Source of the DNA: Bacilli bacterium
Lineage (GTDB): Bacteria > Bacillota_I > Bacilli_A > RF39 > UBA660
NCBI GenBank assembly: GCA_036658935.1
Contig: JAVXDN010000002.1
Span: forward strand, 1-39,507
DNA: 39,507 nucleotides
Direction of reading: 5' to 3'
Positions 17,943-39,469 of the stretch are shown here, one piece after another. Made by a program: the position numbers and the translations under genes. The notes beneath the pieces are model-generated. The model ran no database searches. It saw nothing but the letters and a program-made list of their open reading frames with translations, and was not told where the DNA came from. Each line of letters starts with the position of its first letter. Positions within the stretch are counted from its first letter, which is position 1.

Positions 17943-19306
17943 AACTCATTAAGTTTATCCTTTGTACTTTTTTTCTTATCCTTAGTATTTCCATCATTTA
18001 TCTTTTCTATTCTTACTTTCTTACTTTTATCTTTCTTACTTTTCTTAGTTATTAATATAATTAAAATTAATACAAGTAATAAAGATTCACCTAAAAGTAC
18101 ATAAATAATAAATAAATAATTTTCATTTTTCTTATTAATATCCTTAATATCTTCTATGTTATATCTAGAAATAGTATTCTCTTCTTCATCAAATTGATAT
18201 AACATTTCTTTTCCTGACTCAATATTAATAGCATAAAACAAACTAAACTTATCACTTTTATTCTTCTTATAAACATCAACAAATTCTTCATTTATTTTAA
18301 TATTATATTTAGTATAATTCTTTAAATTAATACTCTTATCTTGAGGAAATACCACTAAACTATTAAACTTAACTTCTTTATAACCCTTATATGAATTATC
18401 TTTTTCATTATATACATATAACTTAATAACACCATCCTCATCTTTTAATCCTACTAAAGTAATATTAAGAATCTTAGAAGTAAAAGCCGGAACTTCAGTT
18501 CCATCAATTGTAACTTTAGTTAATTCAAAAGTATCAGGTTTAGTTAAACTACTTTCTCTTTTAACAACAGTTAAATTTTTATTATTGATTTTTATATTTA
18601 TTGGCTTATCATCAACCACATTTGCGTTGATAATATAAGTTTTAACGTTTCCATTTTGTGCGGTAACTTTAATCTCAAATTTATTATTACCCTCATTTAC
18701 ATCTTTTTCTCCAAGACCATCTATTCTTGCTGTAGAATCTTCTACACTGCCAGATATATTAATCTTTGTTTGATTACTTGGAAGACTTACATTATATTCT
18801 AGAGTATCTTTATTAAAAACAGGGTTAATTAAATAATTTTCTACAACTAAAGTACTTAAATTATTATTTTTTGAATATGAGGCTTCTATTTCTTGTTGTG
18901 TTGAAGCTTTAATAGAAGCTGGAGACACATTAATTCCCATATGAGCTTCAGTTGAATAATCAAGAACATCACTTGCACTTACATTAACACTACTAGTTCC
19001 AGAAGCAAGTACTTTAAAAGTAAATGATTTTACTGAAGAATAAGTACTTGAATTAGAAGGATACCAAACATTATATTCAGAACCACTAGTAAGCTTTAAT
19101 TTATTATTATCGTAACTTAATTTATATTCATAAGTTCCAAGAGCGGAAGATGAAGACACCTTAACACTAACAGTAATAGAATTACCCACAACTGGTCTAT
19201 AATTTGTAGAACTAATATTAATACTTGCAGAAGAAGCTTTTAAATTACTAATTCCTCCAAACATAATTAATATTCCTAAAACAATAAAACTACATATCTT
19301 TTTCAT
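17939..19306 (-). CDS. Membrane-anchored cohesin-like plus cadherin-like beta-sandwich protein
   Basis: Signal peptide. Cohesin-like module (VVGNSITVSVKVSSSSALGTYEYKLSYDNNKLKL). Cadherin-like module (NNLSTLVVENYLINPVFNKDTLEYNVSL...KFEIKVTAQNGNVKTYIINANV). C-terminal TM and Lys-rich tail. Confidence 0.65.
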   Translation of the reverse strand: MKKICSFIVLGILIMFGGISNLKASSASINISSTNYRPVVGNSITVSVKVSSSSALGTYEYKLSYDNNKLKLTSGSEYNVWYPSNSSTYSSVKSFTFKVLASGTSSVNVSASDVLDYSTEAHMGINVSPASIKASTQQEIEASYSKNNNLSTLVVENYLINPVFNKDTLEYNVSLPSNQTKINISGSVEDSTARIDGLGEKDVNEGNNKFEIKVTAQNGNVKTYIINANVVDDKPINIKINNKNLTVVKRESSLTKPDTFELTKVTIDGTEVPAFTSKILNITLVGLKDEDGVIKLYVYNEKDNSYKGYKEVKFNSLVVFPQDKSINLKNYTKYNIKINEEFVDVYKKNKSDKFSLFYAINIESGKEMLYQFDEEENTISRYNIEDIKDINKKNENYLFIIYVLLGESLLLVLILIILITKKSKKDKSKKVRIEKINDGNTKDKKKSTKDKLNEL

Positions 19307-19326
19307 ACTTTTAATTCACTCCTTTT

Positions 19327-24810: not shown

Positions 24811-27800
24811 ATGAAAAATTATAAAGTAATGGATGGAAATGAAGCTTGTGCAAGAGGTGCATATTTATTTAGTGAGATATGTGGTATATACCCTATAACA
24901 CCTGCATCTCCAATGGCAACTTTATGTGATAAATGGTCTAATCAAGATAAAAGAAATATATTTAATTCAAGAGTTAATGTAGTAGAAATGCAAAGTGAAG
25001 CTGGAGCTTCTGCTCTTATACATGGAGCATTACAATCAGGTAGTCTTTCAACAACATTTACATCTTCTCAAGGACTTCTCCTTATGATACCCTCAATGTA
25101 TAAAATGGCTGGAGAACTTCTTCCTGCAGTTATACATGTCGCAGCTAGATCATTATCTACACATGCTCTTTCTATATTTGGAGATCATCAAGATGTTTAT
25201 GCTACACGTTCTACAGGATTCGCTATCCTCTCATCTTCAAATGTACAAGACGCATATAACTTAGGAATAGTTTCTCATTTATCCGCTATAAGTGGACAAG
25301 TTCCTTTTCTTCACTTTTTTGATGGATTTAGAACATCACATGAAATAAATAAAATTAATATATTAGATGATAAAATAGTTTCTTCATTACTTGATATTCC
25401 ATCATTAAATAAATTTAAAAACAGAGCTATTAACATAGGAAATAATGTTACAAGAGGAATGTCACAAACAGAAGATATATATTTTCAAAATACAGAAAGT
25501 AGAAATAAATATTATAATGATCTTCCTAATATTGTAGAATCTTATATGAATAAAATAAATGTACTATCAGGTTCTAATTACAAACCATTTGTTTATTATG
25601 GAGCTTTATCTCCAACTAAAATAATAATCGCTATGGGTAGTGTAACAGATACTATTGCTTCAGTAGTAGATGAATTAAATAAAAATAAAGAAGAAGTTGG
25701 ATTAATAATAGTATATCTTTATAGACCATTTAGTGTAGAGCACCTATTAAAAGTATTACCTAATTCAGTTGAGTCAATCGCAGTACTAGATAGAACTAAA
25801 GAAGCTGGAAGTAATGGAGAACCTTTATATTTAGATATAGTAGAAGCTCTAAATAATAAAAATATAAAAGTATACGGTGGAAGATATGGATTATCTAGTA
25901 AAAATGTAACCCCTTCTTCAATAAAATCAGTATTTGATAATTTGTCATTACCTGAGCCATTAAATCACTTTACTATAGGAATAAATGATGATGTAACTCA
26001 TCTTTCTCTTGAAACATCACTTATAAAAATAAATCATGATTATAAAGAACTTAAAATCTATGGGTTTGGGTCAGATGGAATGGTAGGAGCATCAAAAAAC
26101 ATATTAAAACTTATTGGTTCAAAAGAAGAAACATTTATACAAGGATATTTTGAATATGATTCAAAGAAAAGTAGTGGAATAACAGTATCTCATTTAAGAA
26201 TTGGTCCAACTCCAATAAATGCACCATATTATTGTGAAGACTTATCATTAATAGTAATATCAAAAGATTTATACTTACAAAGATATAACTGTCTTGAAGG
26301 AATTAAAGAAAACGCAATATTATTGATTAATTCTAATAAAACTGATATAGAATTAAATGATTTAATGAATGATGAAACAAAAAAAACTATCAAACAAAAA
26401 CATATACAAGTATTTATAACCTCATCTCAGTCTTTAGCTGATAAATATCACTTAAATGGTAAAATAAATAATATAATGTCTTCATATATTTTAAAATTCT
26501 TAGGTAGTAAAAAAGAAGACTTAATATCTTTTGAAAATATGATAAAAGAAACATATATAAAAAAAGGTGAAGAGATAGTTAATAATAATATAAATGCATT
26601 TAAAGAAGCTGATGAATACTTAAGAGAACTTGATACATCTATATTAGATTTTGAAGAAATAGATACTATAGAAGATAATGATGTAATGTCACGTATGATG
26701 AAAAGAACTAGTTCATCTCTCCCTGTAAGTGCGTTCTTACCTCATACAGATGGTACATTTAAAGGAGGAAGCTCTGCCTTAGAAAAAAGAAAAACAAGTG
26801 ATCATACACCTCATTGGATAAAAGAAAATTGTATTGAATGTAATCAATGTTCATTTGTATGTCCTCACGGAGTAATAAGACCATTCTCTTTAGATGAAAA
26901 AGAATTACTTGATTCAGGATTAACAAAAAACGATACAATAGATTCACTAGGAGAAAAAAACAAACAATTTTATTTATCAGTATCATCATCAAATTGTACA
27001 GGATGTGGCTTATGTGTTGATACATGTATAGGAAAAAATAATAAAAAAGCATTATCATTAGAAAAATATAATGAAAAAGATGATATACTTTGTGATAAAT
27101 TATCTCTGATAGGAACTAATAACACTATATTTAATAAATTCACTGTAAAAGGCTTAGGCTTTGAAAAACCAAAATTTGAGTTTCCTGGAGCATGCGCGGG
27201 ATGTGGAGAAACTCCATATTTAAAAGCATTAACATCACTTTATGGAGAGAATATAGTAATCGCTAACGCTACAGGATGCTCTTCTATTTATTCCTCATCT
27301 CTTCCAAGTACGCCTTATAGTATCCCTTGGATTAGCTCTTTATTTGAAGATAATGCTGAATTTGGTTTAGGAATATTAACATCATATGAAACAACTCGTA
27401 GAAGAATAGAAGAAATTATATATGATACAAAAGATAATGTAACACCAGAAATAAAATCTCTATATAAAGAATGGTTAGATAATAAAGAAGACTATAAAAT
27501 AACTTCAAAAGTAAAAGAAGAATTATTAAAATTAGATATCCCTAATCCTTTAAAAGAATTAAGTGAATATATAGTTTCACGTAATGTATGGACTATAGGT
27601 GGAGACGGTTGGGCTTATGATATAGGATATGGTGGACTTGACCATGTACTTAGAAGTAACAAAAATGTAAAAATATTAGTACTTGATACTGAAGTTTATT
27701 CAAATACAGGAGGACAAACATCAAAAGCCACTAGAACAAGTGCAATCGCTGAGTTTTCAAGTAATGGTAAATTAAATCCTAAAAAAGATTTATTTAGAAG

Positions 27801-28230
27801 TGCAATGTCTATACCAAATGTATATGTTGCATCAATTTGTGAAGGTGCATCAATGCAACAGACTATAACTGCATTTAAAGAAGCAACTGAACATATTGGA
27901 CCTTCTATAATAATTGCATACTCTCCTTGTATAGCACATGGAATAAAAGGTGGATTAGTAAATACATTAAAAGAAGAGAAACTATTAGTATCTTCAGGAT
28001 ATAATATACTAATGCGTTATAATCCAGAAAATGATAAACTAACAATAGATAGTAAAGAACCTGACTTTTCATTATATGAAGAAGTATTTAATAAAGAATT
28101 AAGATATAAAAACTTATCTATAATAAATGAAAATAATTATAAAGAATTATATAATCAAAACTTAGATCAAGCTAAGAAAAGATATTCATTTTATAAAGAT
28201 TATTCATTAAAAACCGAAGGTGAAATATGA
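24811..28230 (+). CDS. nifJ: Pyruvate:ferredoxin (flavodoxin) oxidoreductase, single-polypeptide form
   Basis: N-terminus MDGNEACARGAYLFSEICGIYPITPASPMA, two 4Fe-4S motifs (CIECNQCSFVCPHG, CTGCGLCVDTCIG), TPP-binding GGDGWAYDIGYGGLDHV...LDTEVYSNTGGQ. Confidence 0.95.
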   Translation: MKNYKVMDGNEACARGAYLFSEICGIYPITPASPMATLCDKWSNQDKRNIFNSRVNVVEMQSEAGASALIHGALQSGSLSTTFTSSQGLLLMIPSMYKMAGELLPAVIHVAARSLSTHALSIFGDHQDVYATRSTGFAILSSSNVQDAYNLGIVSHLSAISGQVPFLHFFDGFRTSHEINKINILDDKIVSSLLDIPSLNKFKNRAINIGNNVTRGMSQTEDIYFQNTESRNKYYNDLPNIVESYMNKINVLSGSNYKPFVYYGALSPTKIIIAMGSVTDTIASVVDELNKNKEEVGLIIVYLYRPFSVEHLLKVLPNSVESIAVLDRTKEAGSNGEPLYLDIVEALNNKNIKVYGGRYGLSSKNVTPSSIKSVFDNLSLPEPLNHFTIGINDDVTHLSLETSLIKINHDYKELKIYGFGSDGMVGASKNILKLIGSKEETFIQGYFEYDSKKSSGITVSHLRIGPTPINAPYYCEDLSLIVISKDLYLQRYNCLEGIKENAILLINSNKTDIELNDLMNDETKKTIKQKHIQVFITSSQSLADKYHLNGKINNIMSSYILKFLGSKKEDLISFENMIKETYIKKGEEIVNNNINAFKEADEYLRELDTSILDFEEIDTIEDNDVMSRMMKRTSSSLPVSAFLPHTDGTFKGGSSALEKRKTSDHTPHWIKENCIECNQCSFVCPHGVIRPFSLDEKELLDSGLTKNDTIDSLGEKNKQFYLSVSSSNCTGCGLCVDTCIGKNNKKALSLEKYNEKDDILCDKLSLIGTNNTIFNKFTVKGLGFEKPKFEFPGACAGCGETPYLKALTSLYGENIVIANATGCSSIYSSSLPSTPYSIPWISSLFEDNAEFGLGILTSYETTRRRIEEIIYDTKDNVTPEIKSLYKEWLDNKEDYKITSKVKEELLKLDIPNPLKELSEYIVSRNVWTIGGDGWAYDIGYGGLDHVLRSNKNVKILVLDTEVYSNTGGQTSKATRTSAIAEFSSNGKLNPKKDLFRSAMSIPNVYVASICEGASMQQTITAFKEATEHIGPSIIIAYSPCIAHGIKGGLVNTLKEEKLLVSSGYNILMRYNPENDKLTIDSKEPDFSLYEEVFNKELRYKNLSIINENNYKELYNQNLDQAKKRYSFYKDYSLKTEGEI

Positions 28231-28874: not shown

Positions 28875-29525
28875 ATGAAAAAAATTATATTTATATTATT
28901 ATTATCTTTTTTTCCCTTACTTTTACATGCAAAATGTGGATATGAAGAACAAAATAAATTAAATACTTTAGCGTCCTATGTAGAATATGACTACATACAA
29001 AACAAAGATAATACTTTTAATATAACACTTACTAATATAGTACCATTCCTAGAAGTAGAATATAATAATAACATAATCTCTTCAACAAATAATCAAGTTG
29101 TAATACATAACTTAAAAGAAGGTCAAAACTTGAATTTTAAAATCTTATCTTCATCATCCTCTCCATGTCTAAATTCATTCTTAAGGTCAATTAACATAAC
29201 ACTACCATATATTAACGATTACTATAACACAGAATTATGTTTAGGTTATGAGAAACTACAAGTATGTTCCTCAGCTCTTCTAAATTACAAAGTAACATAT
29301 GATATATTTGTCTCAGCTAAAGAAAAATATGATGAACAAAATAAAGAAGAAGAGGAAATAATTACTAAACCAACTGAAACAAAAAAACAAAAAGAAAATA
29401 TATTTTCTCCAATTATTAAATTTATAAAAATGAACTATATAAAAATAATATTAGTAGCAATTACATCTATAATTTCTTATTCTATATTTAATAGAATATA
29501 TTCAAAAAAAAGATATGGTATATAG
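28875..29525 (+). CDS. Type-I membrane protein (signal peptide, Cys-containing ectodomain, C-terminal TM anchor); paralog A
   Basis: Start trimmed to the ATG at 28875, because the promoter lies inside the ORF-track extension. Signal peptide MKKIIFILLLSFFPLLLHA|KC, C-terminal TM IILVAITSIISYSIF and basic tail. Shares the motif C-x4-LR[ST]I-x15-C-x8-C with ORF 29574-30215. Confidence 0.65.
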   Translation: MKKIIFILLLSFFPLLLHAKCGYEEQNKLNTLASYVEYDYIQNKDNTFNITLTNIVPFLEVEYNNNIISSTNNQVVIHNLKEGQNLNFKILSSSSSPCLNSFLRSINITLPYINDYYNTELCLGYEKLQVCSSALLNYKVTYDIFVSAKEKYDEQNKEEEEIITKPTETKKQKENIFSPIIKFIKMNYIKIILVAITSIISYSIFNRIYSKKRYGI

Positions 29526-29573: not shown

Positions 29574-30215
29574 ATGAAGAAAACATTAATATTAATAATT
29601 TCTATATTGCTTGTATTCCCTACATTAATAAATGCAGAATGTAGTAATGAAACATTAATTGAATATTCTAAAAGTATACAAACAACAATCATTAATACAT
29701 CATATCCAAATACAATAGAATTACATATCAGTGGAATAAATGATTATATATATATAAAAGTAAAAAATAATTTAGAAACAGAAGAAAAAATATATACATC
29801 AAAAGATAAAAATGAATATGGATTTATTGTCTTGTCATCTCCTAATATAAATAAACAACTCATTTACGAAGTCTTAATATACAGTAAAGACACAGGATGT
29901 GGAGAAAAACCACTAAGAACTATAAAGACTAAAACAGAAAAATATAATAAATACTCTTCATACGCAGTATGCAAAGAAGCTAAAGATTTTAAATATTGCC
30001 TAGAATATTATGATACAGATAATTTAAGTGAGAATGAATTTTTAATAGAAGTAAATAAATATATAGAATCATCAAATAAAACTATGTTTGATAAAGTTTT
30101 AGAAGTTATATTAAAATATGGAATCTATGTATTAGTTCCTATTATAGTAGTTGGAGGGTTTTTTATAATTAAAACAATTATATATAAAAAGAAGGTGAAG
30201 CATGAAACAAAATAA
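29574..30215 (+). CDS. Type-I membrane protein; paralog B of ORF 28875-29525
   Basis: Signal peptide ...FPTLINA|EC, C-terminal TM VLVPIIVVGGFFII and basic tail, with the same four-Cys spacing as paralog A. Confidence 0.65.
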   Translation: MKKTLILIISILLVFPTLINAECSNETLIEYSKSIQTTIINTSYPNTIELHISGINDYIYIKVKNNLETEEKIYTSKDKNEYGFIVLSSPNINKQLIYEVLIYSKDTGCGEKPLRTIKTKTEKYNKYSSYAVCKEAKDFKYCLEYYDTDNLSENEFLIEVNKYIESSNKTMFDKVLEVILKYGIYVLVPIIVVGGFFIIKTIIYKKKVKHETK

Positions 30216-33200
30216 TAAAAATAATAAAGTATTAATAATAGTAACATTATTATGTTTATTTATCCCATTCTCTAAGTTAAATGCATCCCCTGAACATATA
30301 ACATTAGTTTTTAGAAATGGGCCAGCTTCTTCTAGCTCATTTAGATACTTACATAGTAACGTTAATATTGGTGGAAAAAGTGAAATAAAGGAAGTTGAAA
30401 GTGTTAAAGCTTGTAAAGATAAAAGAGGTATAGTAGAAACTTTTAATTATGAAGTAGGTTATGCTACTTGTGCACCAGATGAAAAAAAGACAGTAGGCTA
30501 TACATGTGGTTCTCCTATTGGGGTTTATTATCGTTTAGATGCAGCCCCATGTAAAAATGCACAAATGACTTGTAATAAAAATAATATACAAACTAATTTT
30601 AAAGCAGATAAAGTAATATCAAAAACAACTATCAAGACAAAAACGCCTACAGAAAATCCTCCATCAGTAAATCATACTTTAAAAAGTGTGAATTGTTCTA
30701 TTACATCATCCGGAAGAATAGAAACAAGAGAAATAACTGGATATATGTATAAAGTAAAAGGTACAAGCGATGAAACATACTGTATAGATCCAGGCTTAGA
30801 TTTCGAAGCTAATAGTAACTATACAATAGATAATACTTTTCATCTACCAAACTCTACTAATAAAGAAAAACAATTTTATAATGGATTAGTAACTATAATT
30901 CAAGCAGGAAAAGAAAGGGGGTACTCTCCAGATGCAATAGAAACAGCATTAAGACTTTGGACAGGCGCTATGTCTATTGAAGGCGGAGCAGATGGATACT
31001 GGAATGCAGAAGATCAATGGAGTACATCAACATCAGTATTTTCTGTAACCTCTTCACTTATTGTAAAAGACTTATATACTGAATATGTATCTAATATTAA
31101 AACAAATAAAGACTTCGCTCCTGGAGTAATGTTTTCATTAAATGATACCAATGATGCATGGGGAAAAGCAGTATGGCTTTTTTATGATGTATATAAAGGA
31201 AGAATAAAACAATGGAGTCCAAGTATTAAAACAAAATCTTCAACTTACAGAATATCAGATAATCATAAAACTACTATCACAATAGAAACAAACCTTAACA
31301 ATGAAACTACAATAGACGGAATAACATCATCTGATACGAGATTTTCTCCTGAAATAGTAAAAAAATATCAATGTGGGAATAAATATTGTTATGATGTATT
31401 GGTAAGTTCTACAAATATTAATTTAAAGGAAACATCATCTTATCCAGTGTCTTTTGAATTTTCCTATACAGACACAAGAAATCCTGAAAATAGAATAAAT
31501 ATGTATAATCCTGATAAAGGTAAAAAGTATCAGAAAATGATGCTATATGAGAGTGTTCCATCTAAATCAAAAATATCCCTTTCAGTAGTATTCACTACAC
31601 AAGAAATAACAAATCCTATATGTGAAGGTGAAATAAAATCTGATATAAGTACCAGTTGTAATGATAAAACTACTTCAAGTATTATAGACCCATCAATGGA
31701 CAACATTATTGACCCAAATTGCCAAAGAAACAATTATGTATTTAAGAGTAAAACATCTGGATATTTTAAAGTATATTGTAGAGAAGAATCATATTTTAAT
31801 TTTCTTGATAAAGTTGATGTCAACTCAGGAAAATATTTCAAATATAATACCAAAACTTTCTTAGATAAAAAAAATAACATAAATACCACATCATCAATTA
31901 AACAAGTAAGAGAATGTAGCGTAAAAATTGATTATAACGGTTGGAAAAATGAATATGATAGTATAAATAAAAAAGTACTAGATGATTATAATGAATATCA
32001 AAAATATTTATCATTACAAAATGCTAATTACACAACTTCTATAGGACATGATTCAGATTCATCTAGAGGATGTGCTAATTGTTGTAATTGCCACGAATGT
32101 GGGACTAAAGAAAAACCAAAAACATGCTGTTCATCTGGAAAAGGAGGAAAAGCAAGTACTTCATGGACAAGCTATAAATGGAATTCAACATATACATATA
32201 CTAATCCAAATGGAAGCACAGTAACTAAAACCGCAGAATTAAGTTCTCCTGGAAGTGGTAGTGTAACATGTGATCCATGTAGTGGATGTAGGGTAAGTTC
32301 TTATAATGGAAACCCTAATAAAAATGCAAATATAAGTGTGCCATATTATAATACATATAAAGAATCAGTTAATAAAAGAGATAAACTTTTAGAAGATATG
32401 GAATATTATTCAATGTATGATAAAAACATTGTTTCATCTCCTAGCACATCTATTACATTAAATAAAGCTACTAGTTTATATAAATATCTACTAGATCCTT
32501 CTACATACACAGATCCTACATTAACTCTTGAGTATAAAGATACTGAATATCGTCACCCTGAAATTGCAAGTAAAAAAGAATACTCAGAACCTAAAACATC
32601 GTATTGTGTAGGGTGTAGTAGTACTAAATCATTAAATCCAACTATAGGTACAAATAATATTAACTATTATAATTGTAGTAATAACTCTTGCAGTAAAACA
32701 ACTGCAGAAGTACCAAATAGTACATTAAATAACATAAATATAACAAGAGAAGTACAATTTTATAATAACGATGAATATTACACTAATATATTAACTGGAG
32801 GATATACTACAACTCCAGGAGAAAATAAATTAAGACTTGAAAATTATGCATATCCTGTACATCTTAATACTAAAAGTGGTGAGTATGAAGTTTCATTAAC
32901 ATATAAAAACTTAAATAACACAAAGAAATTTATTGAAAGAAAAAAGGATATACTATTTGATAATATTACTTCAAAATTTGATAATACATATTATTGTACA
33001 TATAATGCTACAAATAAAATACCTTTTTGGAGTGAAAAAGAAGTATATGGAATAGTCTTTAGACCGGTTGATCTTACAAACTTATTCCCAGGTGGAAGAG
33101 AAATTGGAGAAAACTGGGCAAAAGAATTAGATATAATTAAATATATACAAAAATTAGGAAATAACATATGGACTAATTCAAAATCAACTCCACAATACAC

Positions 33201-33405
33201 AGTTATACTAACACCAAAAGAAATACAAAATATCAAGTGGTATAATCAAAATAAAAATTATTTATCTTCTGAAACTCTTAAATGTGATGGAGCAACTTGT
33301 ATAAGCACCATGCTTAAAAATCATGATTACGTATTTAATTACAATAAATTAAATGTTTCAACTGATCCATATGGAAATAGTTACAGATTTAAGGGAGGTA
33401 ATTAA
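30202..33405 (+). CDS. Large (1067 aa) secreted Cys-rich protein of unknown family; candidate pilus-associated adhesin or tip factor
   Basis: Signal peptide (VLIIVTLLCLFIPFSKLNA|S). No C-terminal TM or LPXTG motif seen. Dense Cys clusters GCANCCNCHECG...TCC (32071-32130) and TCDPCSGC (32269-32289). Overlaps the upstream gene by 14 nt and ends 3 nt before the next gene. Confidence 0.6.
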   Translation: MKQNNKNNKVLIIVTLLCLFIPFSKLNASPEHITLVFRNGPASSSSFRYLHSNVNIGGKSEIKEVESVKACKDKRGIVETFNYEVGYATCAPDEKKTVGYTCGSPIGVYYRLDAAPCKNAQMTCNKNNIQTNFKADKVISKTTIKTKTPTENPPSVNHTLKSVNCSITSSGRIETREITGYMYKVKGTSDETYCIDPGLDFEANSNYTIDNTFHLPNSTNKEKQFYNGLVTIIQAGKERGYSPDAIETALRLWTGAMSIEGGADGYWNAEDQWSTSTSVFSVTSSLIVKDLYTEYVSNIKTNKDFAPGVMFSLNDTNDAWGKAVWLFYDVYKGRIKQWSPSIKTKSSTYRISDNHKTTITIETNLNNETTIDGITSSDTRFSPEIVKKYQCGNKYCYDVLVSSTNINLKETSSYPVSFEFSYTDTRNPENRINMYNPDKGKKYQKMMLYESVPSKSKISLSVVFTTQEITNPICEGEIKSDISTSCNDKTTSSIIDPSMDNIIDPNCQRNNYVFKSKTSGYFKVYCREESYFNFLDKVDVNSGKYFKYNTKTFLDKKNNINTTSSIKQVRECSVKIDYNGWKNEYDSINKKVLDDYNEYQKYLSLQNANYTTSIGHDSDSSRGCANCCNCHECGTKEKPKTCCSSGKGGKASTSWTSYKWNSTYTYTNPNGSTVTKTAELSSPGSGSVTCDPCSGCRVSSYNGNPNKNANISVPYYNTYKESVNKRDKLLEDMEYYSMYDKNIVSSPSTSITLNKATSLYKYLLDPSTYTDPTLTLEYKDTEYRHPEIASKKEYSEPKTSYCVGCSSTKSLNPTIGTNNINYYNCSNNSCSKTTAEVPNSTLNNINITREVQFYNNDEYYTNILTGGYTTTPGENKLRLENYAYPVHLNTKSGEYEVSLTYKNLNNTKKFIERKKDILFDNITSKFDNTYYCTYNATNKIPFWSEKEVYGIVFRPVDLTNLFPGGREIGENWAKELDIIKYIQKLGNNIWTNSKSTPQYTVILTPKEIQNIKWYNQNKNYLSSETLKCDGATCISTMLKNHDYVFNYNKLNVSTDPYGNSYRFKGGN

Positions 33406-33408
33406 CAT

Positions 33409-33822
33409 ATGAAAGAAAGCTTATGGGGATATTTAGTTTTAATACTTGGAATTATGATATTAGTAGTTATGATATTAGTAAGAGATATAACTTCTACTAC
33501 AGAAAATGATTATTATTTAACAAAAGAAGCTATGAATGCCGCAATGGTAGATTCTCTAGATTATGGAACATACATGCAAAGTGGGGAAATAAGAATAATA
33601 TCAGATAAATTTGTAGAAAACTTCACTAGACGTTTCGCTCAAAGTGTTTCTTCTTCAAAAACATATAAAATAGAATTCTATGAAATATATGAAACACCAC
33701 CTAAAGCAACTATAAGAATAACTACATCTACAAAGAAATACACAGTAACAACAAATGATAATGAAGGTGTAGGATTTGATATAGTTACTCTTCTAAGTGG
33801 AGTACTAGAAACTAAATATTAA
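33409..33822 (+). CDS. Small N-terminally anchored protein; candidate minor pilin (TadE/TadG-like)
   Basis: N-terminus MKESLWG-YLVLILGIMILVVMILV: a short polar leader ending in Gly, then a hydrophobic helix. It parallels ORF 37945-38436 (MKESIGG-TWLLGLVVLFIVLF). Confidence 0.45.
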   Translation: MKESLWGYLVLILGIMILVVMILVRDITSTTENDYYLTKEAMNAAMVDSLDYGTYMQSGEIRIISDKFVENFTRRFAQSVSSSKTYKIEFYEIYETPPKATIRITTSTKKYTVTTNDNEGVGFDIVTLLSGVLETKY

Positions 33823-33909: not shown

Positions 33910-34719
33910 ATGAAAAATTTAAAAGCAACATTAAAAAGATTCTTTACAAATAAAAATACAGTAACTATTCTTTGTGTAATAGGAGCAGTATTAGTACTAT
34001 TTTTTGGATATAATTGGAGAATTAAACAAGTAACTACACCAGTAAGAGTTCCTTATGCATTAAAAAACATTCAACCTAGAACTGTAATAACAGAAGATAT
34101 GATAGGTTATGTAGAAATACCACAAAGCATGTTAACACCAAATACTGCTAGAACAGTTTCAGAAGTGTTAAATAAATATGCTAGTTTTAATACTGTAATA
34201 CCTAAAGGAAGTTTATTTTATAAAAGTGCAATAATGACTTGGGAACAAATGCCAGATTCAGCTTGGGCAGATATACCTGATGGATACACAGTTGTATCTC
34301 TTCCAGTAACAACAGAAACAACTTATGGAAATTCAATATTTCCAGGAAACTATATAGACCTTTATTTTCAATCATACGATGAAACAGGAAAACTTATATT
34401 CGGAAAATTCATAGAAAGTATTGATGTATTAGCAGTTAAAGATAGTAGTGGAAAACATGTATTTGAAAATAGTGATACATTAGGTACTCCCTCATCATTA
34501 ATATTTGCAGTTCCTGAATCTCTTCATTTATTATTAAGAAAAGCATCTTATATGTCTGGAGAGATAATACCAGTACCTAGAAATGCAAGCTATTCACAAA
34601 ATCCATCCGCTACTATTGTAAGTAGTGAATACTTAAAGAACTTTATATTATCACAAACAGTAGTAATACCCGATGAAAAATTACCTTCACTTGATGAAAA
34701 CATTAAACCAAAAGAATAA
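33910..34719 (+). CDS. cpaB: Flp/Tad pilus assembly protein CpaB/RcpC-like (SAF plus RcpC domains)
   Basis: N-terminal TM. SAF-like PVRVPYALKNIQPRTVITEDMIGYVEIPQSML...VIPKGSLF. RcpC-like IPDGYTVVSLPVTTETTYGNSIFPGNYIDLYF. Confidence 0.75.
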   Translation: MKNLKATLKRFFTNKNTVTILCVIGAVLVLFFGYNWRIKQVTTPVRVPYALKNIQPRTVITEDMIGYVEIPQSMLTPNTARTVSEVLNKYASFNTVIPKGSLFYKSAIMTWEQMPDSAWADIPDGYTVVSLPVTTETTYGNSIFPGNYIDLYFQSYDETGKLIFGKFIESIDVLAVKDSSGKHVFENSDTLGTPSSLIFAVPESLHLLLRKASYMSGEIIPVPRNASYSQNPSATIVSSEYLKNFILSQTVVIPDEKLPSLDENIKPKE

Positions 34720-34741: not shown

Positions 34742-35863
34742 ATGAATGATACAATATTTGAACAAATAGATTTTGGACCTTTAATCCCTTTGTTACAAGA
34801 AGATGATTATACAGATATCTCCTATTCAAATGGTGGAGGATTATTTGTAAAAAGTCTTACAAAAGGTGTGTTTAAAATAGAAAATAATCCATTAATAAAT
34901 AATGCATTAATGGAGAAAATAGCATTTCAATGTTCAAACGTAATGGGTAAAACATTTAACATGGCTCATCCTTTCCTTGATGCAGAAAATGCAGAACTTC
35001 GTTTAAACTTTGTACATGAATCAATCGCTACAAATGGTATAGCGGTATTAATTCGTAAAACTCCAGCTAAGATAAGATTGAATAAAGATAAATTATTAAA
35101 AGAAAACTATGTATCTCTACAACTTCATGATTTTTTATTTAAATGCATAGAAGGACACTGTAATGTAATAGTAAGTGGAGAAACTGGTAGTGGAAAAACA
35201 GAACTAGTTAAATATCTAGCTGCACATACTGGAGAAAATGAAAAATTAATTACAATAGAAGATACTCTAGAACTACACTTAGATAAGATATTTCCAAATA
35301 GAGATATAGTCGCAATGAAAACAAATAATATAGCATCTTATACTGAAATATTAGTAACTTGTATGAGACAAAACCCTAAATGGATATTACTTTCTGAAGT
35401 ACGTTCAGCTGAAGCAGTAACTGCAGTTAGAAACTCTATATCTTCAGGACACAATATAATTTCAACTATCCACTCAGATAAAGCTTCCTCAATCCCAATG
35501 CGTATGTATTCACTTCTAGAAACAAACCTAGATGCTGAACAATTCTTAAAGAGTATTCACAGATATATACACTTAGGAGTTCATGTAAAAGGATATATGT
35601 CAAAAAAATACAATCGTTTTCAAAGAGAAATAGTAGAAGTATGTGAATTCTATGTTGATGAAAATAACGAAGCTAAAACTAATACATTATACAGTAAAAC
35701 AATGGATGGTAAAGAAATATATCATAATCCAACTAAATACTTACTTGATTATTTATCAGCTGGAGGAATAGACATTCCAAAAGAAACATTTGTAAATGAT
35801 GAAGGAATATTAAAAACATCAAATGAAGAAACAAAACAAGAAGAAATAATAGAAATACTTTAA
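34742..35863 (+). CDS. tadA: Tad/type IV filament secretion ATPase (CpaF/TadA, T2SSE/VirB11 superfamily)
   Basis: Walker A GETGSGKTE (35177-35200), Asp box ITIEDTLEL, Walker B ILLSEVRSAEA, His box GHNIISTIHS. N-terminal YTDISYSNGGGLFV. At 373 aa it is short for CpaF. Confidence 0.88.
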   Translation: MNDTIFEQIDFGPLIPLLQEDDYTDISYSNGGGLFVKSLTKGVFKIENNPLINNALMEKIAFQCSNVMGKTFNMAHPFLDAENAELRLNFVHESIATNGIAVLIRKTPAKIRLNKDKLLKENYVSLQLHDFLFKCIEGHCNVIVSGETGSGKTELVKYLAAHTGENEKLITIEDTLELHLDKIFPNRDIVAMKTNNIASYTEILVTCMRQNPKWILLSEVRSAEAVTAVRNSISSGHNIISTIHSDKASSIPMRMYSLLETNLDAEQFLKSIHRYIHLGVHVKGYMSKKYNRFQREIVEVCEFYVDENNEAKTNTLYSKTMDGKEIYHNPTKYLLDYLSAGGIDIPKETFVNDEGILKTSNEETKQEEIIEIL

Positions 35864-35888
35864 AAAAATATGATAGGAGGTGCTAATT

Positions 35889-36791
35889 ATGTATATACTA
35901 GAAATACTTATAATATCATTTCTAATTCTTTTTATGATTTTATATCGTAAAAATGATGGAGAAAAGTTTTATAAATTCTTTTCAAATACAATAATGAACA
36001 CCTATAATAAATATGCTCCATATTCATATAAAGAAGTAAAAGAAAAAGTAAAACAATTAGGTGGAAACTTTACATTAAAACAATATATAATTCAAATAAT
36101 AGTATTAGGAGGCTTCTTTGGAGTAGTTGGATACTTATACTTTTATAGTTTAATATATGCTCTTATCTATGCAGGATTAGCTATTGCATTTATTCCATAT
36201 CTTGCTTACTTAAGAAGCTATAAAATATATAGTGAATACGTATTTGAACAAATACAAGTATATACTACTAACGTAATAATGGAATTCAATACTACTCAAA
36301 GCTTTGTAAAAGCTTTAGAAGGAGTAGCAGAGAGTGGAGTACTAGAAGACCCTGTATTATCTGATGTAAAAGAAATGATAAGACTTTCATATAACAATGG
36401 AAATATAGAAGATCCAATAAACTATATGAACTCAAAATATGACTACTACATAGTTAAAAATATGCATCAATTATTCCTTCAAATAACACAAGAAGGTGCA
36501 AAAGACGCAGGAGAATCTCTTGAGAATATGTTACAAGATATAGATATGTTAGTAGAAGGAGTATATAGAGATAGAATGGATAGAGATGGATTTCATAAGA
36601 AATTCATTACATTTGGTTTTGCTCTTTTTGCCCTTATAATATTAATACAATATTTACTAGGAAGAGCTTCATATATGGAACTTGTACAATTATGGTATGT
36701 CCAAATAATACTTCATGGAGTAATACTAATAAATACTGGATTCTTACTAAGTGGAGAAAAATATTATAATCAAGAAGTAGGTGCTGAATAA
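35889..36791 (+). CDS. tadB: TadB-like platform protein (T2SSF domain)
   Basis: Start set at the ATG at 35889, 8 nt after AGGAGG; the ORF-track GTG at 35880 abuts the RBS. Has an N-terminal TM, a TM pair, a soluble helical T2SSF-like domain and C-terminal TMs. Sits directly downstream of tadA. Confidence 0.7.
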   Translation: MYILEILIISFLILFMILYRKNDGEKFYKFFSNTIMNTYNKYAPYSYKEVKEKVKQLGGNFTLKQYIIQIIVLGGFFGVVGYLYFYSLIYALIYAGLAIAFIPYLAYLRSYKIYSEYVFEQIQVYTTNVIMEFNTTQSFVKALEGVAESGVLEDPVLSDVKEMIRLSYNNGNIEDPINYMNSKYDYYIVKNMHQLFLQITQEGAKDAGESLENMLQDIDMLVEGVYRDRMDRDGFHKKFITFGFALFALIILIQYLLGRASYMELVQLWYVQIILHGVILINTGFLLSGEKYYNQEVGAE

Positions 36792-37573
36792 TGGAAATAC
36801 TAATAGTAGGAATATTAATAATTATAGCACTCATAGTAAATGGAAGAATAGATACAAAAAAGTTTATAAAAGATAATGAATTAGCGGTTAATATATTAAA
36901 AGAATCTGATTATGACTTTTTAGTAAGAGCAAAATATGGAGATAAAGTAACTCCAGAAGAAATGTTTAGAAAAAGAGTAAAAAACTCCCTTTTAATATTT
37001 ATAATAATGTTATTTATTTTAATCGCACAAATAAACTTCTTAAATATAGTTCTTTGTGTAATAGTAACAGTAGTAATGTTCAAATCATATTATTTAACAC
37101 TTAAATCATATTATAAAAAACATCTTCATGAGATAGATCTCTTACTTCCTTATTACTTAAAATCTTTAGAAATATTAATGCAACATTATACAGTACCAGT
37201 AGCATTAGGAAAATCTATAAAAGATGCTCCCGCTATATTTAAAGATGGATTAGATATATTAATAAGTAAAATAAATGCAGGAGATGGTTCAATAGATCCA
37301 TATATGGAATTCGCTATTTCTTATCCAGTAAGAGATTCAATGAGAATGATGAGATTACTTTATAGATTAGGTATGGGAAATCAAGAAAGAAAAGATGAAC
37401 AATTAATGACTTTCTCTAGAACTATTTCATCTCTACAAAATAAAAGTAGAGAAACTAAATATAAAGAAAGATTAAATAAAATGGAAAGTAAAACAATGTT
37501 AATGCTATCAGTAACTGGTATTGGAGTATTATTACTTCTTATGTTGACAATAATAAGAATGTTTAATGTATAA
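36791..37573 (+). CDS. tadC: TadC-like platform protein (T2SSF domain)
   Basis: TAATG overlap with tadB and the same topology class as tadB. T2SSF-like soluble region LLPYYLKSLEILMQHYTVPVALGKSI. Confidence 0.7.
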   Translation: MEILIVGILIIIALIVNGRIDTKKFIKDNELAVNILKESDYDFLVRAKYGDKVTPEEMFRKRVKNSLLIFIIMLFILIAQINFLNIVLCVIVTVVMFKSYYLTLKSYYKKHLHEIDLLLPYYLKSLEILMQHYTVPVALGKSIKDAPAIFKDGLDILISKINAGDGSIDPYMEFAISYPVRDSMRMMRLLYRLGMGNQERKDEQLMTFSRTISSLQNKSRETKYKERLNKMESKTMLMLSVTGIGVLLLLMLTIIRMFNV

Positions 37574-37647: not shown

Positions 37648-37923
37648 ATGAAAGGTGCAACAGAGGAACTAAATATGACAGTAATTGCAGTAGTTGCAGT
37701 CGCTGCAGTCGCAGCGTTATTCTATGCATTCGTATGGCCAATGATTCAAAGAAGTATAGCAGATAATACATGTCAAACTTACGGAGAAGGATTCCATGCA
37801 GTAAAGAACACTGCAACTGGTGGTGGAGATGCAGGAACAGGAGCAAGCAAAACAAGCAAATGGGTATGTTGTCCAAAAGGAGTAACATCTGCCTCAGATT
37901 CATCTTGTGTAGCCGCTGACTAA
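37648..37923 (+). CDS. Candidate major pilin (Flp/type IV-like, atypically long and Cys-containing)
   Basis: MKG|ATEELNMTVIAVVAVAAVAALFYAFVWPMI: a short basic leader ending in Gly, acidic residues just after it, then a ~22-residue hydrophobic helix. The C-terminal part is Gly/Ser/Thr-rich with 4 Cys (C42, C74, C75, C87). Its position after tadC is as in Tad loci. Confidence 0.6.
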   Translation: MKGATEELNMTVIAVVAVAAVAALFYAFVWPMIQRSIADNTCQTYGEGFHAVKNTATGGGDAGTGASKTSKWVCCPKGVTSASDSSCVAAD

Positions 37924-37944: not shown

Positions 37945-38436
37945 TTGAAAGAATCAATAGGTGGAACTTGGTTATTAGGCTTAGTGGTACTATTTATAGT
38001 ACTTTTTTCTGCTTTCTTAGCAATCTCAATAAATTATACAAAAGCATTTAAAGTAAAAAATCAAATAATAAATATAATAGAACAAAATGAAGGATACTCT
38101 AATAGTAGTAAAAGAAACTTATCAAGTGTAAGTGATTCAGAACTTAGAAGTAGTAAAAATACAGAAGATAAAGTATATTTATATATAAGAAGTATAGGTT
38201 ATGCATCTGAAAGTATAAGTCAAAATAAATGTAATGGTATTGGAGATAAAGAAGAAGGTGGATACTGTATACAAAGAATATGTACAGAGAATGGTAGTTA
38301 CTATAAAGTAACATCATTTGTTAAAATAGAACTTCCACTTATGTGGCAATCATTCACTGTACCTATAAGTGGAGAAACAAAAGCTATATACAAAGATAAT
38401 AGTAATTTATCAGGTCCATCTCATAGAGGATGTTAA
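37945..38436 (+). CDS. Small N-terminally anchored protein; candidate minor pilin (TadE-like)
   Basis: TTG start. The encoded MKESIGG leader matches MKESLWG of ORF 33409-33822. Hydrophobic helix, then a soluble domain with 4 Cys. Confidence 0.45.
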   Translation: MKESIGGTWLLGLVVLFIVLFSAFLAISINYTKAFKVKNQIINIIEQNEGYSNSSKRNLSSVSDSELRSSKNTEDKVYLYIRSIGYASESISQNKCNGIGDKEEGGYCIQRICTENGSYYKVTSFVKIELPLMWQSFTVPISGETKAIYKDNSNLSGPSHRGC

Positions 38437-38446
38437 GGAGTAAAAT

Positions 38447-39469
38447 ATGAATGTAATAATTGCAAATAAATATAAAGAAATGTTAATGACTCTAGATATT
38501 GAAGTAATGAAATCAATGGAAGGAGTATTTGACTCAAACTTAATAGTAGAAACATTTAAAAACTTTTATTATGAAAGAATGATACTCGATATTACCGCTA
38601 TTAAAGATTATAAAAATATAAGTACATTACAAAACTTATCTATAAACTTAGATGCTTCTAAGATTATATTAGTATTGGATGATTCTCCTGAAAGTGAATC
38701 TTCTATATATTTATCATCATTAATATCTATGGGATTTTATAACTTTACTAGAAATATAGAAGGAATAAAATATTTGATTGAACATCCAAACTCATACAGA
38801 GATGTCGCTCATATACATAAACTTGGATTAGAAGAACAAACATCTCTTCCAAACAACCTTAATAATAATATAGAAGATTCTATTAGTTCAAGAGTACGAA
38901 TAATAGGAATAAAAGACTTAACAGAACATTCAGGATCTACAACACTATCATATTTACTAAATAAACACTTAATGAAAAAATATACTTCATGTGCTGTAGA
39001 AGTCAATAAAGAAGACTTTGTATACTTTGAAGATAAAAGCTTAATAAGTACAACATCTAATGATCTAGCTGCCTGCTTAATGAAAAACAATACATTAGAT
39101 GCAATCATTATAGACTTAAATGATTATAAAGATGAATCTATTTGTAATGAAATTATATATTTAATTGAACCATCAATATTAAAATTAAATAAATTAGTAA
39201 AAAGAAATAGAAGAGTATTTGAAAATATAGAAAACAGACGCTTAGTATTAAATATGTCTTTACTTAATGATACAGACATAAAAGAATTTGAAAAAGAAAT
39301 AAACAACGAATTATACTTTGTCTTACCACCATTAAATGATAGAGATGAAGATAATATTGATATAGATAATTTATTAGTTAAATTAGGTTTTATTAAATTA
39401 GGAACTAATATTACTACAGATAAAAAAGAAAATACAAAAAATAAATTATTTGGATTATTTAAATTCTAA
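38447..39469 (+). CDS. TadZ/CpaE-like protein: receiver-like N-domain plus MinD/ParA-like domain with a degenerate P-loop
   Basis: N-terminal alternating beta/alpha pattern (NVIIAN, MILDIT, KIILVLDD). The second domain has RIIGIKDLTEHSGSTTLSYLL where MinD/CpaE proteins have KGGxGK[ST]T, and DAIIIDLN as a Walker-B-like strand. Confidence 0.5.
   Translation: MNVIIANKYKEMLMTLDIEVMKSMEGVFDSNLIVETFKNFYYERMILDITAIKDYKNISTLQNLSINLDASKIILVLDDSPESESSIYLSSLISMGFYNFTRNIEGIKYLIEHPNSYRDVAHIHKLGLEEQTSLPNNLNNNIEDSISSRVRIIGIKDLTEHSGSTTLSYLLNKHLMKKYTSCAVEVNKEDFVYFEDKSLISTTSNDLAACLMKNNTLDAIIIDLNDYKDESICNEIIYLIEPSILKLNKLVKRNRRVFENIENRRLVLNMSLLNDTDIKEFEKEINNELYFVLPPLNDRDEDNIDIDNLLVKLGFIKLGTNITTDKKENTKNKLFGLFKF

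Follow-up and report, generated by a model that had tools for sequence, protein, structure and literature searches.

The 39,507-nucleotide stretch analysed here (referred to as the window) covers positions 1 to 39,507 of contig JAVXDN010000002.1 from a Bacilli bacterium (assembly GCA_036658935.1) and encodes, at 30202..33405 on the plus strand, a 1,067-residue cysteine-rich secreted protein with an ATG start, which belongs to an unannotated family and which we call BIG. Its motifs, gene order and remote similarities point to a Sec-exported surface thioester adhesin that would dock through a C-terminal module on a Tad-like apparatus and is likely to serve cell-to-cell attachment in a conjugation-type type IV secretion system (T4SS), a reading to which, as a whole, we give slightly better than even credence. 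Thioester adhesins are already known; what is new is a Cys-rich architecture with neither isopeptide domains nor a sortase signal, encoded in a widespread and unannotated gut operon.

The upstream open reading frame (ORF) ends at 30215, its last 14 nt being shared with the BIG gene, and a gap of 3 nt separates BIG from the next ORF, which starts at 33409, as the initial annotation of the window had stated. The N terminus of BIG, MKQNNKNNKVLIIVTLLCLFIPFSKLNA followed by SPEH, reads as a typical Sec signal peptide (residues 1 to 28, 30202..30285) with predicted cleavage after LNA, and Ala28 is invariant in the family alignment. No LPXTG motif, C-terminal transmembrane segment or lipobox was seen in the translation, and the C terminus, ...DPYGNSYRFKGGN, has neither the LPXTG nor the hydrophobic tail of a TIE-type sorting signal. 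We rejected a lipoprotein, since Cys18 lies inside the signal peptide, there is no lipobox and Cys18 is kept in only 7 of 61 relatives. BIG contains 32 Cys residues (3.0%), compared with a mean of 1.04% over 33 ORFs of the window, in which the G+C content is 22 to 29%; this richness is family-wide (66 relatives average 3.9%), and most BIG Cys positions are conserved. The initial annotation was thus right in describing a Cys-rich exported protein with no visible anchor or sorting motif.

The BIG family and its thioester-domain-like region

BIG had no match in Pfam, NCBIfam, PHROGs or PDB sequences, nor in plasmid and phage collections searched by tblastn. A word-index search of 5.8 billion proteins, run with the single BIG protein and with a 22-sequence profile, returned the query alone, and it found nothing with the thioester domain (TED) of TIEpLS20 (p34), the adhesin of the Bacillus subtilis plasmid pLS20; a search of this kind may systematically miss proteins of very AT-rich genomes and seems blind to low-complexity ones. 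Exhaustive HMMER comparison with 1.84 billion cluster representatives recovered 85 relatives (E<1e-10 for 51 of them, E<1e-30 for 22), mostly 800 to 1,400 residues long and 25 to 35% identical. Those that were looked up had no functional name, two fragments being called only "hypothetical protein," and they came from metagenomes and from metagenome-assembled genomes (MAGs) labelled "Bacilli bacterium." BIG is a member of an unannotated family, not an orphan, and the family is a fast-diverging one from uncultured low-GC gut Bacilli.

The initial annotation had found no recognisable family, which did not hold: in addition to having 85 relatives, BIG carries, in residues 171 to 468, signatures of a TED that align to the TED of TIEpLS20. 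It had also recommended profile and structure searches, and among these the standard libraries and Foldseek named no family, whereas hhalign yielded remote matches for both the TED-like region and a C-terminal module. The evidence on these two regions is remote homology of moderate strength, and our wording follows it. PDB-chain sequence searches with the single protein, a full-length profile and an N-domain profile gave no usable match, the phmmer test being powerless for TEDs, as TIEpLS20's own TED also matches no PDB chain.

Residues 171 to 468 (30712..31605) probably form a TED with a class II type layout, judging from motifs, Cys/Gln co-variation, a structural model and hhalign. Published TEDs carry the motifs [YFL]CΦζ, TQxxΦW and ΦQζΦΦ (PMC6194298). 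The first is found in the window as T-Y-C-I-D, with Cys194 (30781-30783) as a candidate bond residue, and TIEpLS20 has the identical YCID tetrapeptide (PMC8092201); the family consensus is AYC[ILV]xPG, and the Cys is present in 56 of 61 relatives. The Gln motif reads Y-Q-K-M-M and supplies the other candidate bond residue, Gln444 (31531-31533), which is near-invariant within the family pattern YQx[FM][IVM]. The second-helix motif is partial: TALRLW, at residues 248 to 253 in a predicted helix spanning 243 to 257, has the Thr, the hydrophobic residue and the Trp.

The two candidate residues co-vary. By our own reading of a 66-row table, in which about 52 rows have a reliably aligned domain, 43 proteins have both Cys and Gln, 5 have neither, 4 have the Cys only and 0 the Gln only (Fisher p 5e-5). 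In addition, the number of mature Cys residues is odd in 42 of 59 full-length relatives, but if the TED Cys is set aside wherever the pair is present, the count becomes even in 46 of the 59 (binomial p 2e-5), and relatives lacking the Cys/Gln pair mostly have an even count. This parity pattern fits one Cys that has no Cys partner, all others being paired, and it lends only indirect support to an actual Cys194-Gln444 thioester bond.

Alignment of the profile of 29 N-domains with that of 7 plasmid TEDs (PLSDB) by hhalign gave a score of 38.9 (P 7.6e-5) over 215 columns, compared with 11.1 for the reversed control and 9.0 to 17.7 for 30 column shuffles, and its register placed Cys194 on Cys68 and Gln444 on Gln256 of TIEpLS20. 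The AlphaFold model of residues 168 to 468 (pLDDT 89.4, pTM 0.86) has the class II order of elements, namely, short strands ending in Cys194, a helical bundle with TALRLW on its second helix, a seven-strand beta-sandwich insert and the hairpin bearing Gln444; class II TEDs likewise have a beta-sandwich inserted before the Gln hairpin.

Several results weigh against a thioester adhesin. Ala replaces the Gln of the TQxxΦW motif in TALRLW, the Gln and Trp of this motif being inessential for bond formation (PMC6194298). A Pfam TED family was matched by 6 of the 29 N-domains (five by TED_2 and one by TED, with a best E of 1.2e-3; other families had one match each), all of them below the gathering threshold, and BIG itself had no Pfam TED match (PF08341 or PF20610); as a benchmark, TIEpLS20 scores 28.8 bits against the Pfam TED cut-off of 27, a margin of <2 bits. 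The probability reported by hhalign was 62%, which is moderate and not decisive. Foldseek searches of the PDB with the full-length and domain models returned only Ig-like sandwiches (best E 6e-3), with no TED among the 50 best matches listed, and the full model had only Ig-like or insignificant matches in BFVD; because of this outcome, we do not claim fold-level proof of a TED. Finally, Pfam recognised no Cna, SpaA or isopeptide domain in BIG or in 22 relatives, in a test in which an LPXTG-type plasmid TIE protein gave SpaA at E 5e-78, and BIG is not a classical TIE protein.

The Foldseek outcome and the sub-threshold Pfam matches would also suit a Cys-rich structural or surface protein with no thioester, serving as a scaffold or wall-spanning part of the apparatus, in which the Cys/Gln resemblance would be a relic or a coincidence and Cys194 would be free or metal-bound. 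The same can be said of the relatives in which the pair is absent and the rest is kept (P0014, P0020, P0024, P0025, P0044, and P0066), as this implies a function of its own for the remainder of the protein. We nevertheless find this explanation improbable, since Cys and Gln are lost together, the parity points to a single Cys with no Cys partner in just those relatives that have the pair, the profile alignment matches the two residues to the functional ones of TIEpLS20 with a score clearly higher than those of the shuffles, and the position of BIG in its operon is that of a proven TED adhesin.

Compared with TIE proteins such as SfbI, Cpa, BaTIE, SaTIE and EfmTIE86 (PMC4450167, PMC6194298), BIG is alike in its Cys and Gln motifs and in the partial second-helix Trp motif but lacks isopeptide and ester (Cna-type) domains and a sortase signal, reaches Pfam TED only below threshold and is not recovered as a TED by Foldseek. 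A further difference is that Cpa sits on a sortase-built pilus, whereas BIG adjoins genes resembling those of type IV filaments.

The operon, the C-terminal module and the parallel with pLS20

All genes of the BIG operon lie on the plus strand. BIG is followed by a DUF5411 protein (33409..33822; 137 aa, N-terminal transmembrane [TM] helix, no Cys; Pfam PF17424, E 4e-51), a CpaB/RcpC-like protein (33910..34719) whose matches to Pfam RcpC (9e-6), SAF (9e-4) and TIGR03177 (2.3e-7) are all below the curated cut-offs, and a TadA/CpaF/VirB11-type secretion ATPase (34742..35863; Pfam T2SSE, 3e-24). The best NCBIfam match of this ATPase is VirB11 (2e-29), ahead of the TadA family conjugal transfer-associated ATPase (1e-25), and it stays below every equivalog cut-off. 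Next come two polytopic membrane proteins of 303 and 260 aa (TM303 and TM260; 35880..37573), conserved at 53 to 68% identity and placed in the TadB/TadC position by gene position and topology only; that they are TadB and TadC could not be shown, as T2SSF did not match significantly. A pilin-like protein of 91 aa (37648..37923), conserved after the membrane proteins, has a short charged N terminus, one hydrophobic helix and 4 Cys, with no family match in Pfam or NCBIfam. It is followed by a 163-aa protein beginning MKES (MKES163; 37945..38436), a candidate minor pilin with 4 Cys that is conserved in related loci, and by w340 (38447..39469), a 340-aa cytoplasmic protein with no Pfam match that is conserved by synteny and for which a TadZ-like role is a guess.

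A genome scan yielded nine loci, all of them in MAGs assigned to uncultured Bacilli or Bacillota, and in each, as far as the contigs reach, the order is the same as in the window: two small exported proteins (wA245 and wB213), BIG, DUF5411, CpaB-like protein, ATPase, TM303, TM260, pilin-like protein, MKES163 and w340. A metagenome scan anchored on the ATPase gave at least 394 places, 80 of which were kept, and pooling metagenome loci with the nine genome loci left 63 that could be tested. The initial annotation had taken co-occurrence with the Tad-like genes as a test of its proposal, and a BIG-family gene indeed lies upstream of the ATPase gene in 55 of these 63 loci; metagenome loci may over-represent a few lineages, and locus counts are not independent events. 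The other 8 have >3.5 kb of upstream DNA with no detectable BIG member, 4 of them having another large secreted protein and 4 having none.

Of 63 family ORFs, 49 have a DUF5411 gene directly after them, the gap having a median length of 10 nt. The tight coupling to a gene whose product begins MKES, as proposed initially, is thus confirmed, but the "minor pilin" part of that proposal is unproven: the product is DUF5411 over its full length, no library calls it a pilin, and it shares only an N-terminal segment of 25 residues with MKES163. We considered DUF5411 as a paralogue of MKES163 and rejected it, since hhalign aligns residues 1 to 25 only.

The median identity to the window protein was 72% for the ATPase, 62% for TM303, 57% for TM260 and 55% for the pilin-like protein, and 47% for DUF5411, 33% for wA245, 28% for wB213 and 25% for BIG. 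The turnover of BIG, wA245 and wB213, by divergence or exchange, is much faster than that of the machinery, and fast divergence is expected of an exposed specificity determinant.

Several relatives depart from the window arrangement. Tandem BIG-DUF5411-wB213-BIG-DUF5411 cassettes lie upstream of one set of machinery genes in two loci (L041, 3-8286, and L045, 2-8286), which suggests that BIG and DUF5411 may be exchanged or duplicated as a unit. DUF5411, elsewhere about 140 aa, has 568 aa in L007 (12965-14671), L009 (12977-14683), L023 (7381-9087) and L053 (4627-6333) and 292 aa in L006 (4926-5804), the longer versions carrying a long C-terminal extension. In L064, L071 and L073-L078 (e.g., L064, 3142-4404), a short BIG-family protein of about 420 aa occurs with no DUF5411 gene before the CpaB-like gene. 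In L068 (139-7515), the slot upstream of DUF5411 is taken by a 2,458-aa secreted protein with a Peptidase_M23 domain that is not of the BIG family.

The second remote similarity concerns a conserved module at residues 880 to 974 (32839..33123), ending FRPVDLTNLFPGGREIGENW, which by hhalign resembles the last 87 residues of the sortase-independent TIEpLS20-type adhesins; the segment in BIG reads ...YAYPVHLNTKSGEYEVSL...FRPVDLTNLFPGGREIGENW. The score was 28.0 (P 7.3e-4), compared with at most 17.4 for 40 shuffles and 16.2 for the reversed control, and P885, G893, Y895, R954, F962, P963 and W972 are invariant or nearly so in the family. Seven sortase-independent TIE homologues end ...ILLxP[IV][NS]xD[DNE]PFPxGxPxGW..., whereas three LPXTG-type homologues do not; the ending that BIG appears to have in common with TIEpLS20 is P-[IV]-[DN]-x-x-[DN]-x-F-P-x-G...G..W. 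In BIG the module is followed by about 95 residues, while in TIEpLS20 it is terminal.

This module bears on how such adhesins are held at the surface. Neither an LPXTG motif, nor a lipobox, nor any known wall-binding module is present in TIEpLS20, its authors left open how it is retained on the surface, and deletion of the host sortase genes left pLS20 conjugation unaffected (PMC8092201). In the plasmids with sortase-independent adhesins, p36, a DUF5411-like protein, directly follows the adhesin in 5 of 5 (pLS20 [L010], pLIS40 [L091], and pLIS1, GH1-13, and U14-5 [L102-L104]). The ATPase was seen in pLS20, pLIS40 and pLIS1 (the gene start only in pLIS1) and p38/p39 in pLS20 and pLIS40, the GH1-13 and U14-5 stretches ending at p36. 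In the LPXTG-type plasmids pj1-0208 (L105) and pLIS4 (L106), by comparison, there is no homologue of the ATPase, p36, p38 or p39 within about 9 kb downstream of the adhesin gene. In this small sample of plasmids, the correlation between adhesin type and gene content suggests that the DUF5411/ATPase block may replace sortase anchoring as the means of adhesin display.

The parallel with pLS20 extends to the operon layout. In pLS20, the gene of TIEpLS20 precedes two small genes, which are followed by p36, a "tadA" ATPase, two membrane proteins of about 250 aa, small single-TM proteins, VirD4, a p028-family protein and VirB4, and the Listeria plasmids pLIS40 and pLIS1 are arranged as pLS20 is. In the published description, p36 and p38-p41 have no assigned function and the ATPase appears as "putative VirB11" (PMC8557374). 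This ATPase and that of the window are 32% identical, and p36 is a distant DUF5411 relative (phmmer, 1.4e-6; Pfam DUF5411, 1.4e-5). TIEpLS20, which has homologues on plasmids of Bacillus and Listeria, is required for conjugation in liquid, and its C68S mutant is inactive (PMC8092201). TIEpLS20 and BIG are alike in having a signal peptide, an N-terminal TED-type domain with YCID and an aligned Gln, an apparently similar C-terminal module of about 90 residues and neither LPXTG, lipobox nor known wall-binding module. Their loci both encode a DUF5411-type TM protein, a TadA/VirB11-type ATPase, two membrane proteins of about 250 to 300 aa and small single-TM proteins.

The two systems also differ. 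BIG and TIEpLS20 have no similarity at the level of BLAST or phmmer and are related at the profile level only; TIEpLS20 has 1 Cys and a stalk of predicted CnaB-type domains, whereas BIG has 32 Cys and about 600 residues of presumably Cys-stabilised domains with no Pfam match. The BIG locus has in addition the CpaB-like gene, the gene for the 91-aa Cys-containing pilin-like protein and that for the 340-aa protein, and the hosts of BIG are uncultured gut Bacilli of 25% GC, unlike the B. subtilis host of pLS20. Finally, a T4SS core follows in pLS20, and for BIG it was seen only in related loci.

In those loci, the genes past w340 encode a membrane protein of about 125 aa, a secreted protein of about 270 to 390 aa, a VirB6-like membrane protein of about 650 aa, a protein of about 105 aa and a VirB4-like ATPase. 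The ~650-aa protein matches the MMCAP2_0566, Mbov_0396 and pLS20_p028 families at E 2e-9 to 2e-6, below their cut-offs. VirB6-, VirB3-, VirB4- or VirD4-like genes come after the module in L001, L004, L009, L013-L018, L023, L048, L061 and L084, including a VirB4-like ATPase in L014 and L061 and a VirD4-like gene in L018. The sequence available for L007 shows no T4SS-like genes directly after the module. When the VirB6-like protein of L004 was used to scan metagenomes, nothing was recovered. The presence of a VirB11/TadA-type ATPase inside Gram-positive T4SS-like operons is to be set against the statement of a 2025 review that Gram-positive T4SSs universally lack VirB11 homologues (PMC12857230).

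On the basis of these comparisons, BIG is probably a thioester adhesin displayed by a Tad-like apparatus, and its mode of action can be outlined as follows. BIG would be exported by Sec and would then form an internal thioester between Cys194 and Gln444. Attack on this bond by a nucleophile, borne by another cell or by a host surface, would fix BIG covalently, as was shown for SfbI and proposed for TIEpLS20. The remaining ~600 residues would form a stalk with about 30 Cys, paired or metal-bound, as braces, and the module at 880 to 974 would dock on DUF5411 and the Tad-like apparatus and so hold BIG on the cell, with DUF5411 as the adaptor between the two. The apparatus itself would consist of DUF5411, the CpaB-like protein, the TadA/VirB11-type ATPase, the two TadB/C-like membrane proteins and the pilin-like proteins, and as a whole it looks like a type IV filament machine of the Tad-like kind. 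The T4SS genes of relatives and the precedent of pLS20 make mating-pair formation or aggregation the most likely role of BIG, binding to host surfaces being a possible role and its main rival. The observations behind this outline are the gene and its family, residue conservation, synteny and remote similarity, from which the thioester, the Cys pairing, the docking and the target are inferred.

A number of points about the apparatus stand on the other side of the balance, along with those given for the TED. The conjugation context of the window copy is extrapolated from relatives, because the contig ends 38 nt past w340, before any T4SS core gene. T2SSF had no significant match in TM303 or TM260 and was faint in relatives (0.066 and 0.19). 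The pilin-like N termini, MKGATEELNM or MKEATGELNM, have no conserved Gly site and no G/xxxxE(Y) cleavage motif, no prepilin peptidase was seen in the window, and a filament is unproven. The hhalign probability for the C-terminal module was 26%.

The BIG locus resembles Tad/Flp (type IVc) pili in that its TadA/CpaF-type ATPase is accompanied by a CpaB/RcpC-like protein and by two membrane proteins occupying the TadB/TadC position, with small pilin-like proteins after them; it differs in having no significant Flp, TadE, TadB/C (T2SSF) or prepilin-peptidase match, and in relatives the BIG-type module is fused to a T4SS-like operon. Tad pili are not known to carry a large tip adhesin. The shared genes, together with the tight DUF5411 coupling, could nonetheless make BIG a host-colonisation adhesin at the tip of a stand-alone Tad (Flp-type) pilus, delivered by DUF5411 and directed at mucus or epithelium, with no DNA transfer involved. 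The hosts are gut and rumen bacteria, the available sequence of L007 has no T4SS-like genes directly after the module, and streptococcal thioester adhesins bind host proteins (PMC4450167). A Clostridia operon encoding CpaF, PilC, DUF5411 and an adhesin-like protein has also been described as a putative secretion or pilus system (PMC9523054). We judge a stand-alone pilus unlikely, since where the contig is long enough the module usually runs into VirB6/VirB3/VirB4-like or VirD4-like genes, the closest characterised counterpart is the conjugation operon of pLS20, in which the TED adhesin has its role in mating, and neither a prepilin peptidase nor a Flp-type G/xxxxEY motif was found.

The "Tad-type locus" and the tip adhesin delivered by a minor pilin of the initial annotation therefore stand in part. 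The CpaB-like protein, the TadA-type ATPase, two membrane proteins and pilin-like genes are present, and an adhesin is the best reading of BIG; the locus is, however, probably not that of a stand-alone pilus, as in relatives it heads a VirB6/VirB4/VirD4-like operon, and delivery by a minor pilin is unproven.

The absence of a known type of anchor, the position of the gene beside that of a secretion-type ATPase and the fast divergence of the family might alternatively speak for a released substrate (an effector, a toxin or a bacteriocin-like protein) of a Tad-like or T2SS-like machine. BIG, however, is provided with a Sec signal peptide of its own, the libraries revealed no enzymatic or toxin domain, no immunity-like pairing was recognised, and both the TED and the C-terminal similarities point to adhesins, all of which makes a released substrate highly improbable.

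A thioester adhesin displayed by a Tad-like apparatus can also be compared with two other adhesin operons. The operon with CpaF, PilC/GspF, DUF5411 and an internalin-like protein that Miller et al. 2022 (PMC9523054) predicted for Roseburia, Ruminococcus and Eubacterium likewise brings together, in Gram-positive gut bacteria, a CpaF-type ATPase, a membrane platform protein, a DUF5411 protein and a large putative adhesion protein; this last is described as internalin-B-like and its hosts are Clostridia, whereas BIG is Cys-rich and TED-like, the comparison being one of descriptions only. PrgB of the Enterococcus plasmid pCF10 is, like BIG, a large exported adhesin of a Gram-positive conjugation operon, where it promotes donor-recipient aggregation (as summarised in PMC8092201). 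It is LPXTG anchored and has a lectin-like adhesin domain that binds extracellular DNA and no thioester, and we found no sequence relation between the two.

More broadly, pLS20-type Gram-positive conjugation systems and the numerous relatives of these in uncultured gut Bacilli might build a Tad-like type IV filament, that is, a conjugative pilus or pseudopilus, carrying a sortase-independent thioester adhesin docked via DUF5411/p36. We regard this as possible rather than probable. In the literature that we searched, we did not meet the idea of a Tad-like filament machine displaying sortase-independent TED adhesins in Gram-positive conjugation, and Gram-positive elements are said to form no conjugative pili (PMC8557374).

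Cysteines of the variable regions and of the proposed stalk

The full-length model of BIG has a pLDDT of 74. Residues 29 to 170 (30286..30711) form a variable Cys-containing region that is missing or unalignable in many relatives and is modelled at pLDDT <50 over residues 53 to 170; in the relatives that do have it, C90, C117 and C124 are kept. After the TED-like region, a beta-rich domain with a long helix (residues 474 to 617, 31621..32052) carries the near-invariant C474, C486, C526 and C572 and the motif YCRE..F.F(M/L)DK. Window BIG does not have the near-invariant C522 of this domain and has instead the rare C507 (2 of 64 relatives), an exchange that looks like a relocated partner and thereby favours paired Cys.

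The dense Cys cluster (C624-C643, 7 Cys in 20 residues) lies in a loop at residues 619 to 650 (32056..32151) modelled at pLDDT <50. It is the least conserved part of BIG, hypervariable in length and with 5 to 22 Cys across relatives, C627, C633 and C643 being conserved where the cluster columns can be aligned. Residues 653 to 700 are modelled as beta hairpins carrying a CxxCxxC motif (C690, C693, and C696; 32269..32289), in which 49 of 49 relatives keep C696 and 34 of 48 keep C690, and residues 713 to 736 form a second long helix. Both the cluster and the CxxCxxC motif are found where the initial annotation placed them, the ranges 32071-32130 and 32269-32289 running in each case from the first to the last Cys and not over the whole peptide printed there.

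Residues 773 to 940 are modelled as beta-sandwich domains, followed by a C-terminal alpha/beta domain (941 to 1040). The sandwiches bear a CxxC (802/805) and a CxxxxC (825/830) motif (32605..32691), conserved in 62 of 64, 62 of 62, 58 of 60 and 58 of 61 relatives and placed by the model at strand ends and in a hairpin; two more CxxxxC spacings occur at 391/396 and 1028/1033. Cys802, Cys805, Cys825 and Cys830 could form a Zn(Cys)4 knuckle pair or two local disulfides, either being possible. The middle domains of BIG (474 to 620 and 760 to 940) show no similarity to TIEpLS20.

Apart from that of the TED, the Cys residues of BIG appear to be paired, whether as disulfides or in even-numbered metal sites. 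Elsewhere in the operon, wA245, wB213, the pilin-like protein and MKES163 each have exactly 4 Cys in their mature part, and the DUF5411 protein and the 303-aa membrane protein have 0. It seems that, in a presumed anaerobe, the whole apparatus depends on paired Cys for its extracellular parts.

The initial annotation had seen in the dense cluster a metal-binding or knotted module rather than ordinary disulfides. Extended to the stalk as a whole, this would mean that C624-C643, C690-C696 and/or 802-830 bind Zn or another metal, which concerns only the stalk and is compatible with an adhesin. Metal would suit an exported protein of an anaerobe with no obvious Dsb system; no disulfide-making oxidoreductase was recognised in the locus, a finding that sits poorly with a disulfide-braced adhesin, and the pyruvate:ferredoxin oxidoreductase gene that the initial annotation had placed nearby, and that does lie at 24811-28230 (Pfam POR_N, E 8e-70), marks an anaerobe. 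The cluster also contains a His (CNCHEC), and Cys802/805/825/830 are nearly invariant, have zinc-knuckle spacing and sit at turns in the model. The dense cluster, in contrast, varies in length and Cys number and is modelled at low confidence, while a defined site would be conserved; the family-wide even parity and the C522/C507 exchange fit pairs, as do the four other exported operon proteins with exactly 4 Cys each. We therefore consider metal binding rather unlikely overall, and least so at the CxxC...CxxxxC set of 802-830. A heavily Cys-paired exported protein is rare in an anaerobic Firmicute and raises the question of what oxidises or metallates its Cys.

Neighbouring genes and implications

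Two small exported proteins are encoded upstream of BIG. wA245 (28875..29525) has a signal peptide, 4 mature Cys and a C-terminal TM anchor; its listed ORF starts at a TTG (28788), its homologues begin at MKK..., and the true start is probably the ATG at 28875. Homologues with 27 to 41% identity occupy the same place in related loci. wB213 (29574..30215), likewise with a signal peptide, 4 Cys and a C-terminal TM anchor, lies directly upstream of BIG in related loci (22 to 36% identity) and is a distant paralogue of wA245, the two cross-matching in L006 and L009.

Further upstream, many relatives have genes that the window does not. These encode a DUF6568 small membrane protein, a protein of 520 to 530 aa with a class B sortase domain, a HerA/FtsK-like ATPase (about 590 to 680 aa) and a secreted protein of about 400 aa with no family, as well as, in L004, a transglutaminase-like protein; the loci concerned are L003 (3196-8399), L004 (687-7253), L005 (1721-6893), L014 (571-3894), L016 (4957-8377) and L061 (2619-3149).

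Elsewhere in the window, on the minus strand at 17939-21522, the gene of a 455-aa membrane-anchored protein with cohesin and cadherin-like domains adjoins that of a 731-aa secreted protein with SH3_3 and type I dockerin domains, and the two may form a surface-display pair outside a cellulosome context. At the contig start, 72-599 and 692-1354 encode proteins of 175 and 220 aa; each has a hydrophobic N-terminal segment, and neither matched a family significantly.

With a thioester adhesin displayed by a Tad-like apparatus, an unannotated family of 85 sequence clusters, whose module occurs at at least 394 metagenome places, gains a proposed role in covalent thioester adhesion. This proposal links three subjects, namely, the DUF5411 pilus-like operons of gut Firmicutes (PMC9523054), the "putative VirB11" block of the pLS20 family (PMC8557374) and the question of how TIEpLS20 is attached (PMC8092201). 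If the filament reading is true, it would explain how TIEpLS20 stays on the cell and would go against current statements that deny Gram-positive T4SSs both pili and VirB11-type ATPases, the BIG family being a disulfide- or metal-braced version of the adhesin made by anaerobes. Gram-positive mating-pair formation would then involve a type IV filament, which would bear on the spread of mobile elements in the gut.

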